A stretch of DNA of 64,000 nucleotides from assembly GCF_024502345.1 (NCBI RefSeq), contig NZ_JALDNN010000001.1; one strand, given 5' to 3'. Each line of letters opens with the position of its first letter. Within the stretch, counting starts at the first letter, position 1. Under the pieces are notes generated by a model. That model was not told where the DNA came from, searched no databases, and saw only the letters and a program-made list of their open reading frames with translations. Position numbers and translations under genes: made by a program. Of the stretch, positions 1 through 54,695 are shown piece by piece. Source of the stretch: Escherichia coli (GTDB lineage Bacteria; Pseudomonadota; Gammaproteobacteria; Enterobacterales; Enterobacteriaceae).

Positions 1-3000
1 CTGATGCTGCTCATGCTGTTCAGAGAGCACATCCAGCAGCATGGCGTGCGTTTCACGCACGTTCACGTTGAGGCGCACGCTGTTCACCTGACCAAACGAT
101 ACGTTCTGCAACCCCTGGTTGAGCATACGGATACGGTTCTGCTCGCGCTGAATGGTTTTGCGAATGATGTTCGCCACGCTGCGGGAACTGATCGCCAGTT
201 TCTGTTCACGGGAGGTTAATTCTTCGGTCAGACGGCTAAGTTCGATCTCCATCTGTTCGATAGCTTCCACCGGATCATCGGTACGAATAATATCCTGACG
301 AATACGTTCACGCAGATGCTGATAAACCGCCACGAAGAACTGAATTTTACGCTCCGGACGTTTCGGATCTTCCGACATGCGCAGCACGTCGCGCAGATGT
401 TCGTTATCCGCCACCGCCAGACGCAGCGCACCTAACGCCTTATCCGACATGGAACGCAAATCATCAGCGGAGAGATAAGCCAGCTCACGACGGTGTAAGC
501 GGCGCTCAACGCCGTTATCTTTCACCATGCGCATCACCGCACACCAGCCCGCTTTGGCGGTCACTACCTGCTCGCGCATCTCAAAGTAATCACGCTCCAG
601 CTTTCGCAGTTTGCGGGTCAGGTTGTCCATCTCCGCTTCGCAGAAGGTAAGCGCTTTTTCCAGTTGATTGCGGCGTGAACGGTTATTGCTCAGTTGCGCA
701 TGCAGCTCGTCACGGCGAATACGCGCCCGCTCTTCTGCCCCGCTATCAGCACGCACGCCGATATCCTGCAATTCACGTTGCAGATCGTTGAGTAGCTCTT
801 TTTTGGTGTCGTACGAACTTTTCAGCGAAGCCAGCACCTGGTTGTACTGACTCAACTGCGCTGCGTGACCGCGCAACGCTTCGCGAGCGCGGGTACGCTC
901 CGCTTCCGCCTGTTCCAGACGTTCACGCAGTTTTTCGTTGAGATCGTTGTTACCGCTAAGCATTTCTGCCGAGTCAGAATAGCTAAAGTGCGCACGACGC
1001 TGCACCACTTCCGTCAGGGCAAACGCCTGCTGACGGGCATCGCGCTGCATCTGCTGAGAGTACGCGTAATCTTCTTTTAACTGTTCGAACTGTTCCGGGT
1101 CGCTCTGCAATACCGAAACGATCGGTTCCAGTTTCGCCAGTTGATTGCCAAACTGCTGAACAAAACGCGCGGCTTCCTGGGCTTCATCCAGACGTTCGCG
1201 GATTTCATCGACGCGATCCGCCAGGCTGTCATCAGCCAACAGGTTGAGACGCGGCAGAATGCGGTTCAGCGCCGTAACGCCTTCTTTCGCCTGCTCAAAC
1301 TGAATACGCTGCTGCTGGTTATCATTTTCATGATTACTCAACGCCCGCTCCAGTTCGACGCGACGGCTGTTCAGTTGACGGATTTCTGCTTCCGGGTCAG
1401 ACTCAAACGCCACCGCCAGATGACTGCCGATAAAGCGGCTGAACGCCTGATGCAGACGCTGGGTTTTCTGTACATCAAAGGAGAGCGTGGCGAAGCGTTC
1501 GGAAAGCACTTCACGCTCGGCATGGAGGCTTTCAATACGGCTTTCACGCGCAGCACGACCAAACAGCGGCACTTCCGGGAAACGTGAATAACGCCACTGA
1601 CGATCGGCGATTTTCACCACTACCGCTTTTTCCAGCTCATCAACGCTGAACACGCTATCATCGAATGACTGCGGATCCCCTTCGATCAAATAGAGATCTT
1701 CCGGGCAATCGGTCAAGCCTTCCAGGTGTTCGGTTACCTGTGACAGATCTGGCACCACGATGGCGTGGCGTGACGGACCATACAGAGCCGAGAAGTATGG
1801 CGCATCTTCCAGGCTAACGTCGTCATAAATTTCTGACAGCAGCACACCACCAAAACGCTCTGCCAGCGCGTTCAGACGCTGATCTTCAGAGCCGCCAGGC
1901 TGGCTTAAACGTTCGATCTCTTCATCGACGGCGTTTTTGCGCGCGCCTACTTCATCGCGTTCAACAATCGCCTCGCGCTCACGCTCCAGCAACTGTTGCA
2001 GATATTCAGTGACGTCCTGGCTGGAGGAGAACTCTTCGCCGCACTGTTCACTCAACTGGTTGAGACTGTTTTGCGCTGCCAGCCAAACCGGTGCACGCTG
2101 CATCAAACTCTGAATGCGAGACTGCAGCTGTTCCTGCTCCTGGCGCAGTGCCATACGCTCTTCGCGGGCGTTAGACACGCTATCGGAAAGAGAGGCAATA
2201 CGCGCTTCCAGCTCCTGATGCAGGGCTTCCAGTTCATCGATATCAAAATTCTTGCCCTGACGTTTGCAGAAATCTGCCAGCAGACGCTCAGCTTCTTGCT
2301 GCTCGCGCAGACGCTGTTCCAGTTCACTTAAGCGCATCCGCAACGGTTGAACCTGCTCTGCCAGGTGACGCTGATCGACCCCTTCGCGCAGCAGTTCGCG
2401 GGCGACATCCCACGCCTCGTTACGCGCCAGCGGGCCGTTGATTGCCACCACCAGCTGATAAGCCTGCTCAAACTGGCTGTGCGCGGTTTGCGCCATGCTC
2501 ATTTTCTGCTCAAGAGAGAGCATTTTTTCAGTCGCTTCCTGCTCTTTCGCCTGGAAGGTTTCCAGCCATTCGGCGGCGCTGTCGGCGGTTAAGTCCGGCA
2601 GATGGCACAGTTCTTTGGCACGATTAAGTGCAGCAATCGCCTGGTTATACTGGATCGCGCGCGTTTGCTGGACGTCCAGCGCCTGCTGGTAGTCAGCAAG
2701 CTGGCTTTTCAGCTCGTCCACTTCCAGTTCGGCAGCTTCCGCACGAGCCTCATTCTCTTCCTGGCGTTCGATGGCTTCTGCCACCACTTCGTTTTGCTCT
2801 TCCAGACGGATCTGCAGCTCATCGAGATCCGCTTCGTAGCGTTCGATCTTCTCCTGCTGACGCAATGCGGTTTGCACCAGGTTCAGGTGATCGCTGGCCG
2901 CCTGATAATCCGCTTCCAGATCGCCTTCGGCACCGTTGTGCTCTGCCAGCTCACGCGCCATATCGACGTGTTTGTACTGCTCAGCCGCCAGTTGCTGACG

Positions 3001-3894
3001 CGAAGTGTGTAGCTCGCGACGAAACTCCAGGGCTTTGTCGAGATGGACACGGCGCTCGTTGGCGTGACGCATGTAGTCCGCCGCCACGTAGTTGGTGGCT
3101 TCGCTAATCAGATGCTTAAACAGGTCGCGGTCCGACTGGGTGACACGAATCGCTTCCAGCGTCATGCGGTTTTCACGCAGCGCCGCTTCCATGTCCTGGA
3201 ACGCTTTACGCACGCCGCTGTTTTCCGGCAACAGGTAGTCGCGCAGAGAACGGGTAATGGCACTGGAGATCCCGCCATACAGCGAAGCTTCGATCAGACG
3301 ATAGAATTTGCTACGGTCAGATGCGGAGCGCAGACGACGCGCGATGATGCCCAGATCGAACATCAGCGAGTGGTAATCGGTAATGGAGTTGAACTGTTTA
3401 AACTGCACGCCTTCCATCGCCTCGAGCTTGTCTTTCAGCTCGTTAAGCGGCAGCACGCGCGCCTGGCGTTCGTTCAGAGTTTCGGTCACCAGCTGTGTCG
3501 GCTGCACCGACATCGGCAGTCCCTGAATGGCAAATGGTTTGATATCCACTTTACGATCGCGTCCGGCAACCTGTTGCAGACGCACACCGACCACCACGCG
3601 CTGGTGGCGCGAGTTAATGGTGTCGAGCATCGAATAACAGACACCCGCTTTCAGCTTACCGTGCAGACCTTTATCGCGCGAACCGCTGGTGGCCCCGGCT
3701 TCCGTAGTGTTACGGAAATGCAGCAGGGTCAGGTCGGGGATCAGCGCCGTAACGAACGCCGCCATGGTGGTGGATTTACCCGCCCCGTTACCGCCAGAAA
3801 GCGTCGTGACCAGCTCGTCAAGGTCAAAAGTTCGGGCAAAAAAGCCGTTCCAGTTAATCAGCGTCAGTGAGCGAAATTTACCGCGTTCAATCAT
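1..3894 (-). CDS. mukB: Chromosome partition protein MukB (SMC-like), partial: about 190 C-terminal codons lie beyond the window start
   Basis: Minus-strand frame open to the window edge, so absent from the ORF track. N-terminus MIERGKF read codon by codon at 3894..3874; peptide [24 protein letters not shown] read at positions 1..72. Start ATG overlaps the mukE stop by 1 nt (TAATG). Confidence 0.95.
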
Positions 3895-4598
3895 TATTCT
3901 TCCTCTCCGCTATCTGGCTGATTCTCTTCGGTTTCATCGTTGAGTTGCAGATGATTTTCAATCGGCATTGCTTCGCCATCACGAATCAGGCGACGCTGTG
4001 CTTCACGGGGATCGTCGCCAGCACGCACATCGGCTCCGAAGCGGAACACCGATTCGGTAATGCGGAACTTGCTGCTGTCGTGGCCCATAAACCACACCAT
4101 GCCTAAACGACGCAGACGGTTGAGCGAAGAACGTACTTTTTCCTGCAACTTCTGACGGTCAACGTCTGAACCGGTTGAACGGTTGTTCACCAGTTTCAGC
4201 AGTTTCGCTTCATCAGCCAGGGTGAGCAGTTCGTCGTACAGTTCCTGTTGAGTAAAAATCCCCTCATTCGCCAGCCGTTCCGGGCTGAGATAGAGATAAC
4301 AGAGGATTTTCCCGACCATCATATCCAGTTCCGACAAGACGGAACGAGGGATCAGCGTGGTGGAACGTGGGCGTAAATAGAAGAACCCTTCTGGTGCGCG
4401 AATAAGCTCAACGTTATAACGCGCGTAAAACTCTTCCAGATATTCCTGAAAATCCATCAGGAATGCATGATTATCCAGTTCGTCGAGGCCAATATGGCGG
4501 CCTGAACGTAAGGCGCTGTCCAGCGCCGGAAATAACGGATTCGCCAGCGCCTGCGCCAGCTTAACCGGCATCACTTGTTCAATATTTGTCGATGACAT
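3894..4598 (-). CDS. mukE: Chromosome partition protein MukE
   Basis: ORF track 3894..4625 (243 aa). Start placed at the ATG at 4598 (MSSTNIEQ..., 234 aa) to match the known protein; the in-frame ATG at 4625 is an alternative. Overlaps the mukF 3' end by 20 nt. Confidence 0.9.
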
Positions 4599-5901
4599 GC
4601 GCCTGTACCTTGGCTCCGTAATCATTAATCGGCTGCCATTTCGCTGGCAGTCCGGTGAAATCTGCTTGCGCTACGCCAAGACGTACCGCCTGATCAATAA
4701 CAATGCGCGCAACGTCAAAGTGACGTGCACGCGGATACTGTGACAAATATTCGCGTACCACCAGACCAAGATCCAGCGGCACTTGTCTGGTTTTGTACAC
4801 GGCAAGTTGTTCTTCGATGATCGCCGCCAGCTGTTCGCGGATCTCGTTAAACTCTTCGTATTCCAAATCTGGCGGAAGTTCCCCAGTCACTTCTTCATCG
4901 CGCAGTGCCATCTCTTCGTCACGCATATCCAGCAGACGATCGGCATTGGCATAAGTTAGCGCCCACGGCTCATCAAAATAGGTTTGTACCGACTGACGTA
5001 ACCGCTGAGCAAAGACGCGGTTTTTATCCATATCGATCGCGGTACGAATAAATTTATGTACGTGGCGGTCGTAGCCAATCCACAAATCGATGGATTGCTG
5101 GCCCCAACTGATAATACGGTCGAGTTTGCTCTGCAGATCGAACACCAGACGATCGACAAAATGCAGATCGTCATGAGTCATCGTCGCATCCTGAATGCGC
5201 AACAGATTAGCCTGCAATTTGTCGCCTGCCGCTTCCAGCGTATCCTGCAATTCACGCAGCGTTCCGGAAGTTTCCGAAAGCAACAATTCACAGCTGGAAA
5301 TCGCCGCCCGCCAGTCTTTGTTCAGCAACTGGGCGATATCGTCCTTCACCTGCTGCTGCTGTTCGTCCATCAGACGTTGCGTCAGGTCGATACTGTCGAA
5401 AATTTCTGCTACCGAATATTTCAGTGGCGCATAGACATTACGGTGCCAGTGAAATTCATCACCGCCCTCTTCGGCGGCATCTGCTGCGCGTTTGAGCTCA
5501 CCCGCCACAATCGACAACTGCATAGAAAGGCGCAGCGTAGAAAACTCGCGCTGACGGATGTAATAGTCAGTAATGCCGATGCCGAGCGGCGTCAGACGGT
5601 AAATAGCGTTACCTTCCGCCTGCTCGCTGGTAAAGCGGTTCAGCAGACGTTGACGCACCATGTCGTTGATCGCGTTATTGGCGCGCACGCCGATGGTTTC
5701 GCTGGTTTGCTCAAACGCATCACTCACATGGCGGAATGCATCCACCAGCTCGCCTTCACTCATCTCACCATCCAGACGCTCGCCGTTCAGCGTGGCAACC
5801 GCCAGCAGAAAAGAGAGTCGGTCTACCGGCAGCGAGATGGAGAAGTCATTTTTTCTGGCCCAGGCAACCAGTTCGGGGACTGTCTGGGAAAATTCACTCA
5901 T
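4579..5901 (-). CDS. mukF: Chromosome partition protein MukF (kleisin)
   Basis: ORF track, 440 aa, [20 protein letters not shown]...; length matches MukF. 4-nt overlap with the cmoM stop. Confidence 0.95.
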
Positions 5902-6683
5902 ACTTTATCCTTGCTCTGCGGTTTGCGCGCGGTGACATGAATATAACGCCCCAGGGTAATATACGGTTCCTGACGGCAATAACGCGTTTCTAATTCAAGT
6001 AATGCTTCATAGCAGTCGCGCTGCTGGTGCTTCTCGCGCAGATAATCATGAAACACGCGAACGCCTGTCTTACCCATAATTTGCCAACCAGCTTCTTCCA
6101 GCCACAGATAAACCTGCGCCGGGTCGCGTGGATAATCTGGCGAAAGCGTCCGTTTTTTCTTTTTCGGCATTCCCGCCTGCACGTAATCAAAATTCCCGGC
6201 GACCATGTTATGCATCAACAAACCATGCGCATTGTAGAACATTAACGACAACACGCCGCCTGGACGCAACACTGACCACAGGGTCTGCAATACGCTGCGG
6301 GGATCAGCCACCCACTCGAGCACCGCATGGAACAATATCAGATCAACGGGCGTTTCCAAATGCGAAGCAACATCCTGAGCGGCGCAATGTATAAATTGCA
6401 TGTTGTCGCTCACACCTTTTGCTTCTGCCGCCTGTTTTGCGCGGTCGATCATCTGCGCAGAAAGATCGCATAAAATGACCTGATGCCCGCGCTCGGCCAT
6501 TTTGATTGCGGTCTGCCCTTCTCCACCGCCCGCATCCAGCACACGCAGTTTTTGCGGACCCATTTCCGCCAGCACGCGATCGAGATCCTGCCACAGAATA
6601 GCCTGTCGAAGCTGCCCTTTGGTGGTGCCGTAAATGTTACGGGAAAACTTTTCCGCAATATCATCAAAATTGCGATCCTGCAT
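5898..6683 (-). CDS. cmoM: SAM-dependent methyltransferase CmoM (SmtA), tRNA mcmo5U methylation
   Basis: ORF track 5898..6695 begins at a GTG. ATG at 6683 gives [13 protein letters not shown]... (261 aa). SAM-binding motif VLDAGGGEG present. Confidence 0.9.
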
Positions 6684-6818
6684 TGCTTTCTCCACCGGTT
6701 GGCTAAGACGTTTTCTGATAAAGACGCTATTTTGTCACAGCCACGGCGAGAATGAACCCGTCTGGTGTAATATCGCTGGCGATCCCTTGCTATATGGTTA
6801 AAAAAGGAACCAGAAAGG

Positions 6819-7598
6819 ATGCTTTTTACACTGAAAAAAGTGATTGGCAATATGTTGCTGCCACTTCCGCTGATGTTGTTAATTATTGGCGCTGGCCTGG
6901 CGCTGCTGTGGTTTAGCCGTTTTCAAAAAACCGGGAAGATTTTTATTAGCATTGGGTGGCTGTCACTCTTGTTATTGAGTTTGCAACCGGTAGCCGACCG
7001 CCTGCTGCGTCCCATCGAAAGCACCTATCCGACATGGAATAATTCGCAAAAAGTGGACTATATCGTGGTGCTCAGAGGTGGTTATACCTGGAACCCGCAG
7101 TGGGCACCGAGCTCTAATTTAATCAATAACAGTCTGCCACGCCTGAATGAGGGTATCCGTTTATGGCGCGAAAATCCGGGTTCAAAACTGATCTTCACGG
7201 GAGGCGTAGCAAAAACCAATACGGTGAGTACAGCGGAAGTAGGTGCCAGAGTTGCGCAATCGCTGGGCGTACCGCGCGAGCAAATTATCACCCTGGATTT
7301 GCCAAAAGATACCGAAGAAGAAGCTGCGGCAGTGAAACAGGCGATTGGTGACGCCCCTTTCCTGCTGGTGACCTCCGCATCACATCTGCCGCGGGCGATG
7401 ATCTTTTTTCAGCAGGAAGGGTTAAATCCGCTACCAGCCCCGGCGAATCAGTTGGCCATCGACTCGCCGCTTAATCCGTGGGAACGGGCAATCCCTTCTC
7501 CGGTCTGGCTGATGCATAGCGATCGTGTTGGCTATGAAACGCTTGGCCGCATCTGGCAGTGGCTGAAAGGTTCGTCAGGCGAGCCACGGCAAGAGTGA
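6819..7598 (+). CDS. elyC: Envelope biogenesis factor ElyC (YcbC), DUF218 family
   Basis: ORF track, 259 aa, with an N-terminal transmembrane segment. Divergent from cmoM; 3' end overlaps ycbJ on the opposite strand. Confidence 0.85.
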   Translation: MLFTLKKVIGNMLLPLPLMLLIIGAGLALLWFSRFQKTGKIFISIGWLSLLLLSLQPVADRLLRPIESTYPTWNNSQKVDYIVVLRGGYTWNPQWAPSSNLINNSLPRLNEGIRLWRENPGSKLIFTGGVAKTNTVSTAEVGARVAQSLGVPREQIITLDLPKDTEEEAAAVKQAIGDAPFLLVTSASHLPRAMIFFQQEGLNPLPAPANQLAIDSPLNPWERAIPSPVWLMHSDRVGYETLGRIWQWLKGSSGEPRQE

Positions 7599-8468
7599 TT
7601 TTGATGCCAGATCGAAGTTGCGCCGACTAAATCGTCCGGTATTAACCAGTTGCGCAACTTCATCCCATAACACATACAACCAACGCCGCCAGATGAACGA
7701 CTCCGCCACTGGCGCGCGTTGCAGGTAACTCCAGAGCAAATCTTCCGCCAGAGAATTATCCATTAGTCGGAACAGTTCGTATTCTCGCGGTGCCCAAAGC
7801 ATTAGTCCCGGCCCGACCATCGCCAGTAACTGATCGCTGCGCGAATCTTTCAGCATGCTGCGTAAACAGAAGTTACCGTGAATCAACACACAATTGTCGT
7901 TAAAGCCTTCAAATAATGCCGGGAGACATTCGCGAGTGCGAAACAGGATCCGCTTATCCTGCATCGTCAGACCGGTGTTATTGAACTGATTGAGCGTGGT
8001 CCATAGCACTTCAACATGTTGCCGGTACCATGAGGGCCAGAAATTTTCCTGAGTATTGTCGACCGCGCCGACGCAACCGCGACTGTCCTGACGGTGCCAG
8101 GCCAGTAAGGCTTCAACGATTTGGTCTTTAAGCTGTTCCCAGCGTTCTGGTGTTCGGGCTGGTGCCTCCACCGAAACACCACGCATCCGCTCCAGTAGCA
8201 GGACATCAGGGCCGGGGTGTTCTTCATGCGTCATCACACCATAAATAGTCGGCATACGGACAGTCCCACTTCTTGCCAGCATGGTGGTTTTCCATGCCAG
8301 TTGTCGGGCTTTTCCGGGCGTACTAAAGCTTCTTGCCATTAACGGCATTGGGTTTCCCTGGCTGTCATACAAAGCCCACAACGCCGTATCCGCTTTTTCA
8401 TTGACGCACTCAATACGACTGAGTTTTTCGCCCAGTAAATGGCTTAATTCGGCACGCAGCTGTTCCAT
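7575..8468 (-). CDS. ycbJ: Uncharacterised kinase-like protein YcbJ (aminoglycoside phosphotransferase fold)
   Basis: ORF track, 297 aa, MEQLRAELSHLLGEKLSRIECV.... Confidence 0.85.
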   Translation of the reverse strand: MEQLRAELSHLLGEKLSRIECVNEKADTALWALYDSQGNPMPLMARSFSTPGKARQLAWKTTMLARSGTVRMPTIYGVMTHEEHPGPDVLLLERMRGVSVEAPARTPERWEQLKDQIVEALLAWHRQDSRGCVGAVDNTQENFWPSWYRQHVEVLWTTLNQFNNTGLTMQDKRILFRTRECLPALFEGFNDNCVLIHGNFCLRSMLKDSRSDQLLAMVGPGLMLWAPREYELFRLMDNSLAEDLLWSYLQRAPVAESFIWRRWLYVLWDEVAQLVNTGRFSRRNFDLASKSLLPWLA

Positions 8469-8621: not shown

Positions 8622-9547
<926 letters not shown>

Positions 9548-10867: not shown

Positions 10868-11854
10868 CTAGTTGCCAGAAGCCAGCGAGGTTAGTTGCGC
10901 AAGCAGTTTCGCTGGTTCATCACCTGAAAGCTGTGCGTCAACGGGCAAATACCACCAATTTTCTTCTGCAAAGGCCCGGCATTTCACCGCATCTTTTTCA
11001 GTCATTACCAGCGTTTGCCCGGTGCTTACCAACGCGCTGACATCCGCATGGTTCAAAGACTGATGATCGGCCAGCGGTACACATTTTTCCGGTTGTACGC
11101 CGCACATCTTCAGCGTGGCAAAAAAGCGCGGCGGATGCCCAATCCCCGCCATCGCCACTACATGTTCAAGCTGAGCAACGTCACAACGCGTACCGGTACG
11201 TAAATTCACCGCCTGACCCGGCAGAAGATGCATGGGGATTTCACCGCTGCGGGGGACACCGCCGTTGACGATTACCGCATCAACCGACTTTAAGCGCCCC
11301 GCTCGCTCACGCATTGGCCCCGCCGGCAACCACCAGCCATTGCCAAAGCGACGCACACCATCAACAACGACAATTTCCACATCACGCGCCAGACGGTAAT
11401 GCTGTAAACCGTCGTCGGTTACGATGATCTGCACATCAGGGTGTTGCGCCAGAATGGCTTTTACCGCATCAGAACGCACGGGAGAAACCGCAACGGGCGC
11501 GCCAGTGCGTTGATAAATCAACACAGGTTCATCACCCGCCTGTGCTGTAGTGGTATCTGCCGACAATAACAGCGGATAAGATTCAGCCTTACCACCATAT
11601 CCCCGCGATACGACCCCCACGCGAATACCGCGCTGTTGCAACTGTTCCACCAGCCAGACAACGACCGGGGTTTTTCCGTTGCCGCCTGCGGTGAGATTAC
11701 CAACCACGACAACCGGTACGGGGGCACGCCAGGCGCGCTTCAGTTTTAGTTTATAGCAAAGACGGATCGCGCCACTCACCAGGCCATACAACCAAGAGAG
11801 TGGCAGCAATAGCCGCCACAAAGGGGATTCACCAGACCAGATTTTTTCGATCAT
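10868..11854 (-). CDS. lpxK: Tetraacyldisaccharide 4'-kinase (lipid A biosynthesis)
   Basis: ORF track, 328 aa; P-loop [12 protein letters not shown]. Start overlaps the msbA stop by 4 nt. Confidence 0.95.
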
Positions 11855-39259: not shown

Positions 39260-39429
39260 AATGGCTCACTCAAGCTTGCTCACGATTGATTCCAGTAACA
39301 AACCGTATTGTGTAATTATTTCTATAGCAGCTCGCTATATAGGCTTGTATACATCGAATAATTTGAAAATCAAAGAGATAGGTAGATTTTCACTCGAAAG
39401 TAGTATTACGTGTAAGTGAGGAGTAATTA

Positions 39430-39443
39430 TTGTTCGGTATCAA
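39430..39443 (-). promoter_or_regulatory. FNR binding site of the dmsABC promoter
   Basis: Minus-strand TTGATaccgAACAA matches the FNR consensus with one mismatched half-site position, about 170-185 bp upstream of the dmsA start codon. Confidence 0.65.
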
Positions 39444-39451
39444 AGGGAGAC

Positions 39452-39478
39452 AAAAAAAGCGCCCGTAGGCGCTTTTTA
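39452..39478 (-). terminator. Rho-independent terminator downstream of serS
   Basis: Minus-strand AAGCGCC-tacg-GGCGCTT followed by seven T. Confidence 0.75.
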
Positions 39479-39497
39479 GATTCAGAAAAATTGGGTA

Positions 39498-54476: not shown

Positions 54477-54564
54477 GGTGAGGTGTCCGAGTGGCTGAAG
54501 GAGCACGCCTGGAAAGTGTGTATACGGCAACGTATCGGGGGTTCGAATCCCCCCCTCACCGCCA
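54477..54564 (+). tRNA. serW: tRNA-Ser (anticodon GGA)
   Basis: 88 nt GGTGAGGTGTCCGAGTGGCTGAAGGAGCACGCCTGGAAAGTGTG...GGTTCGAATCCCCCCCTCACCGCCA. Acceptor stem GGTGAGG/CCTCACC, anticodon loop CTGGAAA, long variable arm, encoded CCA. Confidence 0.93.
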
Positions 54565-54615: not shown

Positions 54616-54695
54616 CTGCCTGTACGGCAGTGAACATGGTGGGCGGGTGGAGTATGTTACCAGTGAATTTCTAAGCTGCCTGTACGGCAGTGAAC
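54616..54695 (+). repeat. Pair of identical 20-bp direct repeats, each a small hairpin, downstream of serW
   Basis: CTGCCTGTACGGCAGTGAAC at 54616..54635 and again at 54676..54695, exactly 60 bp start to start. Each contains the dyad CTGCC-tgtac-GGCAG. Confidence 0.8.

Follow-up and report, generated by a model that had tools for sequence, protein, structure and literature searches.

Results

The window analyzed here, the whole stretch of 64,000 nucleotides from Escherichia coli (contig NZ_JALDNN010000001.1, assembly GCF_024502345.1), carries at its left end the muk genes on its minus strand, preceded by a methyltransferase gene in the same direction.

5898-6683, minus strand: cmoM (smtA), 261 aa, tRNA cmo5U34 methyltransferase (ORF and translation, RefSeq, Pfam)
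4579-5901, minus strand: mukF, 440 aa, kleisin (ORF, RefSeq, Pfam)
3894-4598, minus strand: mukE, 234 aa (ORF, RefSeq, Pfam MukE)
1-3894, minus strand: mukB, truncated at the left window edge after its first 1,298 codons

Pfam assigns methyltransferase domains to the cmoM product, KicB, MukF_M and MukF_C to MukF, and the MukB N-terminal and hinge domains to the partial MukB, about 566 nt of whose gene lie beyond the left end of the window (RefSeq mukB has 4,461 nt). The 234-aa MukE is identical to chain C of PDB 3EUH. All three junctions have identical boundaries in the RefSeq annotation of an E. coli genome of 99.8% identity, and cmoM starts there at ATG 6683, which is preceded by the Shine-Dalgarno (SD) motif GGAG; an SD is absent from the alternative start, GTG 6695. 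ORFs, Pfam and RefSeq thus agree on the order and strand of the genes (methyltransferase, MukF, MukE, MukB, all co-directional), and the locus is the known E. coli cmoM(smtA)-mukF-mukE-mukB operon, with the three junctions studied here being its internal ones.

Much about this operon is on record. In the review PMC4255302, the smtA(cmoM)-mukF-mukE-mukB operon is credited to Yamanaka et al. 1996, and the literature describes both the co-transcription of its genes and the assembly of MukB, MukE and MukF into one complex. MukBEF expression goes up when the promoter ahead of smtA is replaced, and strain construction has treated the genes as this operon. The K-12 distances, -4 for cmoM/mukF, -20 for mukF/mukE and -1 for mukE/mukB, are tabulated in supplementary file 3 of PMC10666635, where the mukF/mukE and mukE/mukB pairs are flagged as complex-forming. 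The window has these same distances, and it matches K-12 operon b0921-b0924 in gene content, order and strand as well, the only difference being the truncation of mukB by the window. The operon, its gene order and its exact junction distances are therefore already published and are not new.

The region is present in nearly all complete genomes of the species. A 3.5-kb query around the junctions, carrying mukB, mukE, mukF, cmoM and elyC on the matching stretch, found a match of 95-100% identity in 5,425 of 5,426 complete E. coli genomes. The remaining genome had no match to the cmoM-mukFEB stretch, and 4 of the 5,429 matching places are in records labeled as plasmids.

A simple consensus scan of window positions 1-7200 for sigma-70 promoters and terminators gave nothing of note within the operon, and Rfam gave no known RNA family there. 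Beyond the operon, the convergent genes elyC (6819-7598, plus strand) and ycbJ (7575-8468, minus strand) overlap at their 3' ends by 24 nt (7575-7598). Farther along, the enterobacterial sRNA family STnc130 matches over its full length at 39350-39484 (plus strand, 139 bits), and Rfam gives a single match to CRISPR-DR4, a type I-F-like repeat, at 54668-54695 (minus strand, 50.1 bits), beside a tRNA at 54477-54561 (plus strand). E. coli has a vestigial CRISPR array in the region of clpA, infA and serW, and the CRISPR-DR4 match may be that array.

Direct reading of the sequence and the RefSeq annotation bear out the overlaps of 4, 20 and 1 nt that an earlier note on this DNA had given for the three junctions.

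5898-5901, minus strand: cmoM/mukF junction, ATGA, 4-nt overlap (mukF ATG 5901..5899, cmoM TGA 5900..5898)
4579-4598, minus strand: mukF/mukE 20-nt overlap (mukE ATG 4598..4596, mukF TGA 4581..4579)
3892-3896, minus strand: mukE/mukB junction, TAATG, 1-nt overlap (mukB ATG 3894..3892, mukE TAA 3896..3894)

The span of 3892-4598 that the note assigned to the coupled string takes in mukE and its two junctions, but the cmoM/mukF junction lies outside it. Each junction taken singly is unremarkable, and only -20 belongs to a less common class. In E. coli, 707 of 2,987 unidirectional pairs fall within -8 to +6, the commonest spacing being -4, followed by -1 and -8, with longer overlaps rare; pairs encoding subunits of a complex make up 30.4% at short distance versus 6.8% at more than 20 nt, a 4.5-fold enrichment among short-overlap pairs (PMC10666635). 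Of the 28 co-directional gene pairs in the 50-kb neighborhood of the operon, 5 overlap. Overlaps of 4 nt of the ATGA type also occur nearby at ycaR/kdsB (9365-9368) and msbA/lpxK (about 11851-11854).

Three sets of sequences were compared. The genome loci were the best 80 matches, all from species of Enterobacteriaceae; a distant set comprised 10 MukE loci of 30-69% identity, drawn from representative proteins together with the contigs that encode them; and a metagenome scan with a degenerate-codon pattern, in which the MukF peptide AKVQAHVID was fixed and synonymous sites were free, yielded 120 stretches with 80 distinct junction contexts and MukE proteins 59-100% identical to that of E. coli. 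The 20-nt mukF/mukE overlap is present in all of the best 80 Enterobacteriaceae matches and, with a TGA stop, in 80 of 80 distinct metagenome contexts. Among the 10 distant loci, the same junction ranges from a 32-nt overlap through an 85-nt gap. mukE and mukB overlap in each of the 81 Enterobacteriaceae loci listed, by 1 nt (66 loci), 4 nt (10) or 8 nt (5), and in 8 of the 10 distant loci. The cmoM/mukF junction takes three forms among the 77 Enterobacteriaceae loci listed, a 3-nt gap (35), an 8-nt overlap (30) and a 4-nt overlap (12), with longer gaps in the wider metagenome set. The mukF-mukE-mukB packing is thus kept over a wide evolutionary range, whereas the cmoM/mukF geometry is evolutionarily labile, with spacings between -8 and +3 in a single family.

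Nearly every locus whose flank is long enough has a cmoM-like methyltransferase upstream of mukF, a Vibrio-like locus among them. One locus (L083, 2132-4238; MukE 69% identical) has a divergent PF01171 gene upstream of mukF and no cmoM there; a 34-nt spacer separates its mukF and mukE, and the 1-nt mukE/mukB overlap is kept. Five long MukE representatives (P0127, P0129, P0130, P0133 and P0136; 380-574 aa) have an N-terminal MukE domain and a long C-terminal extension, and may be either genuine fusions or artefacts of gene calling.

Because the arrangement is conserved across species, it is maintained rather than accidental. This bears on the proposal that initiation at each gene is fully independent, with each cistron using its own SD and the overlaps amounting to compact packing without an effect on expression. 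The frozen -20 geometry and the near-universal mukE/mukB overlap speak against that proposal by suggesting selection on the arrangement itself.

The width of the middle overlap depends on where mukE starts, and two in-frame alternatives flank the annotated ATG 4598.

4623-4625, minus strand: in-frame upstream ATG of mukE; longest ORF, 243 aa, 47-nt overlap with mukF
4569-4571, minus strand: in-frame ATG at mukE codon 10; 225 aa, no overlap, 7 nt past the mukF stop

We reject ATG 4625, which is ATG in 59 and ACG in 21 of the 80 species at the best 80 loci and has no SD (-1.8 kcal/mol). ATG 4571 is present in 80 of 80 loci within Enterobacteriaceae (best 80 loci) but likewise has no SD, and in 9 of the 80 wider metagenome junctions codon 10 is instead ATT, ATA, ATC, CTC or CCA. 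The codon-10 ATG is also absent from a Vibrio-like locus (L086), whose junction otherwise retains AAGGTACAGGCNCATGTCATCGA. ATG 4598, by comparison, is invariant in all 80 Enterobacteriaceae loci (best 80) and all 80 metagenome junctions, and MukF His435, whose codon CAT makes the mukE ATG, is encoded by CAT in 80 of 80 metagenome junctions although the search pattern permitted CAC. With codon 10 a nonstart in 9 of 80 junctions and in the Vibrio-like locus, and ATG 4598 invariant, Met10 is not favored as the sole start, and it is possible that ATG 4571 serves as a minor secondary one. The pattern of conservation supports the annotated ATG 4598 as the true mukE start, predicting a protein of 234 aa and the 20-nt overlap. 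Structural entries differ on the MukE N terminus: PDB 3EUH and 9GMB have 234 aa, 7V8P and 3RPU have the Met10 start (225 aa), and the Pfam MukE model PF04288 begins at residue 10.

All three downstream starts are preceded, at a suitable spacing, by an SD motif that lies in the upstream ORF, as expected of coupled genes.

5908-5912, minus strand: mukF SD AAGGA, in the last cmoM codons, 6 nt before the ATG; duplex -5.2 kcal/mol
4599-4628, minus strand: mukE initiation region, in the last mukF codons, with AAGG at 4608-4611 and GGAG at 4615-4618
3901-3908, minus strand: mukB SD GGAGAGGA, in acidic mukE C-terminal codons (G-E-E-E), 6 nt before the ATG

No SD in the operon is stronger than GGAGAGGA (-6.6 kcal/mol); related species keep GGAGG or GGAGA there, and distant loci have SD-like motifs. 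Upstream of the mukF ATG, AAGGA alone is invariant across the 77 Enterobacteriaceae loci listed. The mukE AAGG lies 9 nt before the ATG and would pair with the 5' part of the anti-SD, giving an aligned spacing of about 5 by our own estimate from the consensus UAAGGAGGU. The presence of an SD at all three starts is what fully independent initiation would predict.

The mukE initiation region stands apart in its conservation. Mean entropy over the 30 nt before the start is 0.056 bit for mukE versus 0.985 for mukF and 0.725 for mukB in Enterobacteriaceae, and 4599-4628 is the window of lowest synonymous-site entropy in the mukF gene (0.054 versus a median of 0.954). MukF Lys431 is AAG in 79 of 80 metagenome junctions, in which synonymous sites were free; in this wider set only AAG, CAG, CAT and GTC stay fixed, and the three third positions between them vary freely. 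Across the family, the 30 nt preceding mukE are more constant than a 4-nt SD requires, and this constancy is the sole feature of the locus left unexplained. Such conservation might point to a dedicated translational control element at 4599-4628, such as a binding site for a protein or RNA or a structure, that would set the MukE:MukF ratio at the frozen -20 junction, although we regard this candidate as very doubtful.

Local folding was compared with that of shuffled sequences, with z scores of +0.94 at the mukB start, +1.69 at mukF and -1.71 at mukE. The mukF and mukB starts fold no more stably than shuffles and therefore do not look masked or dependent on unmasking; this lack of unusually stable structure at two junctions again suits independent initiation. 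Over the mukE AUG, a 33-nt hairpin can be drawn (-6.8 kcal/mol, z -1.33), but the Vibrio-like sequence folds differently, and covariation was 0.108 versus 0.100 in shuffles, equaled or exceeded in 19 of 500. With a weak fold and covariation not above the shuffle controls, masking of the mukE AUG by a conserved hairpin appears doubtful. The classic unmasking pairs trpBA, atpHA and rplJL (listed in PMC6728339) likewise have the downstream initiation site inside the upstream coding region; the mukE site differs from them in its weak hairpin, its control-level covariation and the divergent Vibrio-like fold.

Published ribosome-profiling data allow the junctions to be compared by output, a check that the earlier note had proposed. 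In Mori 2021 Dataset EV6, the Li 2014 column (MOPS glucose minimal medium), divided by the listed mass, resolves to whole numbers of molecules per generation: 69 for CmoM, 204 for MukF (2.96 times CmoM), 263 for MukE (1.29 times MukF) and 356 for MukB (1.35 times MukE). As these values are second-hand, from a conversion table, and represent one growth condition and weakly expressed genes, only the threefold cmoM/mukF step is robust, and the two steps of about 1.3-fold are within plausible error. The proteomic molar ratio of B:E:F:CmoM, from mass fractions in Dataset EV6, is about 3.4:2.8:1:0.56. Synthesis thus climbs at every junction, which disfavors strict coupling.

Discussion

The short overlaps of the muk operon invite an explanation by translational coupling, and the geometry is partly of the right kind. 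Termination-reinitiation has been linked to spacings of -8 to +10, and its efficiency drops steeply with distance (PMC10666635). The cmoM/mukF (-4) and mukE/mukB (-1) junctions lie in the range of -8 to about +10, and mukF/mukE, with the mukE ATG 17 nt upstream of the mukF TGA, lies outside it. For native E. coli pairs at -4, four of five were coupled and the SD mattered in most (Huber et al. 2019, PMC6728339).

The most demanding form of coupling is a strict termination-reinitiation chain, in which the same ribosomes would translate cmoM, mukF, mukE and mukB in turn and so lock the four outputs together. Conservation of the overlaps fits such a chain, as does the fact that -4 and -1 are classic reinitiation geometries, at which most E. 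coli pairs assayed were coupled. Reinitiation, however, cannot run faster than translation of the upstream gene, and yet synthesis rises; therefore, strict termination-reinitiation cannot be the sole route. With an efficiency of at most 1 and no other source, downstream synthesis would have to equal or fall below upstream synthesis, and the progression 69, 204, 263, 356 is impossible. The -20 junction, outside the -8 to +10 class where reinitiation falls off steeply, the drift of cmoM/mukF spacing from -8 to +3 in one family with larger gaps elsewhere, and the lineage without cmoM upstream of mukF all weigh further against the chain, which we consider highly improbable.

The rise in synthesis could also stem from an internal promoter or differential mRNA stability. 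Tight coupling could then persist, with the increase supplied by extra transcripts starting inside cmoM or mukF, or by 5' mRNA decay, and not by de novo initiation. The largest step, threefold, does fall at cmoM/mukF, where an internal promoter is most plausible, and in lineages in which mukF has no cmoM upstream, mukF must have a promoter of its own. Against this stand the smtA-upstream promoter, which the literature takes as the operon promoter, and our simple sigma-70 scan, which as weak evidence showed no promoter-like minus-strand site in cmoM or mukF; we give extra transcripts little credence as the source of the rise. Unless such transcripts exist, much of the initiation is certainly de novo at mukF and probably so at mukE and mukB.

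At the other extreme, fully independent initiation gains from the unequal synthesis rates of the cistrons and from bioBF, the one of the five E. coli -4 pairs that showed no coupling (PMC6728339). Besides the conserved arrangement discussed above, the other four native pairs count against it, and a ribosome that terminates within the footprint of the next start must physically meet that site. Independence at every junction is, on balance, unlikely.

We consider it probable, though with appreciable doubt, that initiation at each cistron is SD driven and mostly de novo, assisted but not dictated by translation of the upstream gene. Most initiation at mukF, mukE and mukB would then be directed by their own SD motifs, while ribosomes finishing the upstream gene would keep the next site unfolded and some of them would reinitiate. 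The strengths of the initiation sites, rather than ribosome hand-over, would set the order CmoM < MukF < MukE < MukB. Coupling would be partial at most, and weakest or irrelevant at cmoM/mukF. We infer the division between de novo initiation and reinitiation because our literature search found no study on translational coupling in the cmoM-mukFEB operon.

The coupled pairs of Huber et al. (PMC6728339, PMC10666635) provide the closest comparison. They are likewise co-directional, with ATGA or TAATG junctions, an SD in the upstream ORF and products that are subunits of heteromeric complexes. The present operon departs from them in that downstream synthesis exceeds upstream synthesis and the middle junction, at -20, is outside the characterized range. 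In addition, CmoM is no subunit of the complex. The earlier note held that the overlaps fit translational coupling of the MukBEF subunits. Geometry, SD motifs and membership in one complex support that reading in part, and the rising synthesis excludes a strictly coupled string. Its inclusion of cmoM in the same string fares worst, given the threefold step, the labile geometry and the absence of cmoM upstream of mukF in one lineage.

Genes whose products assemble into one complex overlap by a few nucleotides in textbook fashion, and the arrangement is of little importance in that respect. The comparative data do settle the start of mukE, excluding the 243-aa form and leaving the 225-aa form of some structures and Pfam not favored. 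They also set the 20-nt mukF/mukE overlap, frozen over a wide range of gamma-proteobacteria, apart from the cmoM/mukF junction, which is not. An output that rises along the operon would roughly suit a cell that requires MukB and MukE in excess of MukF.
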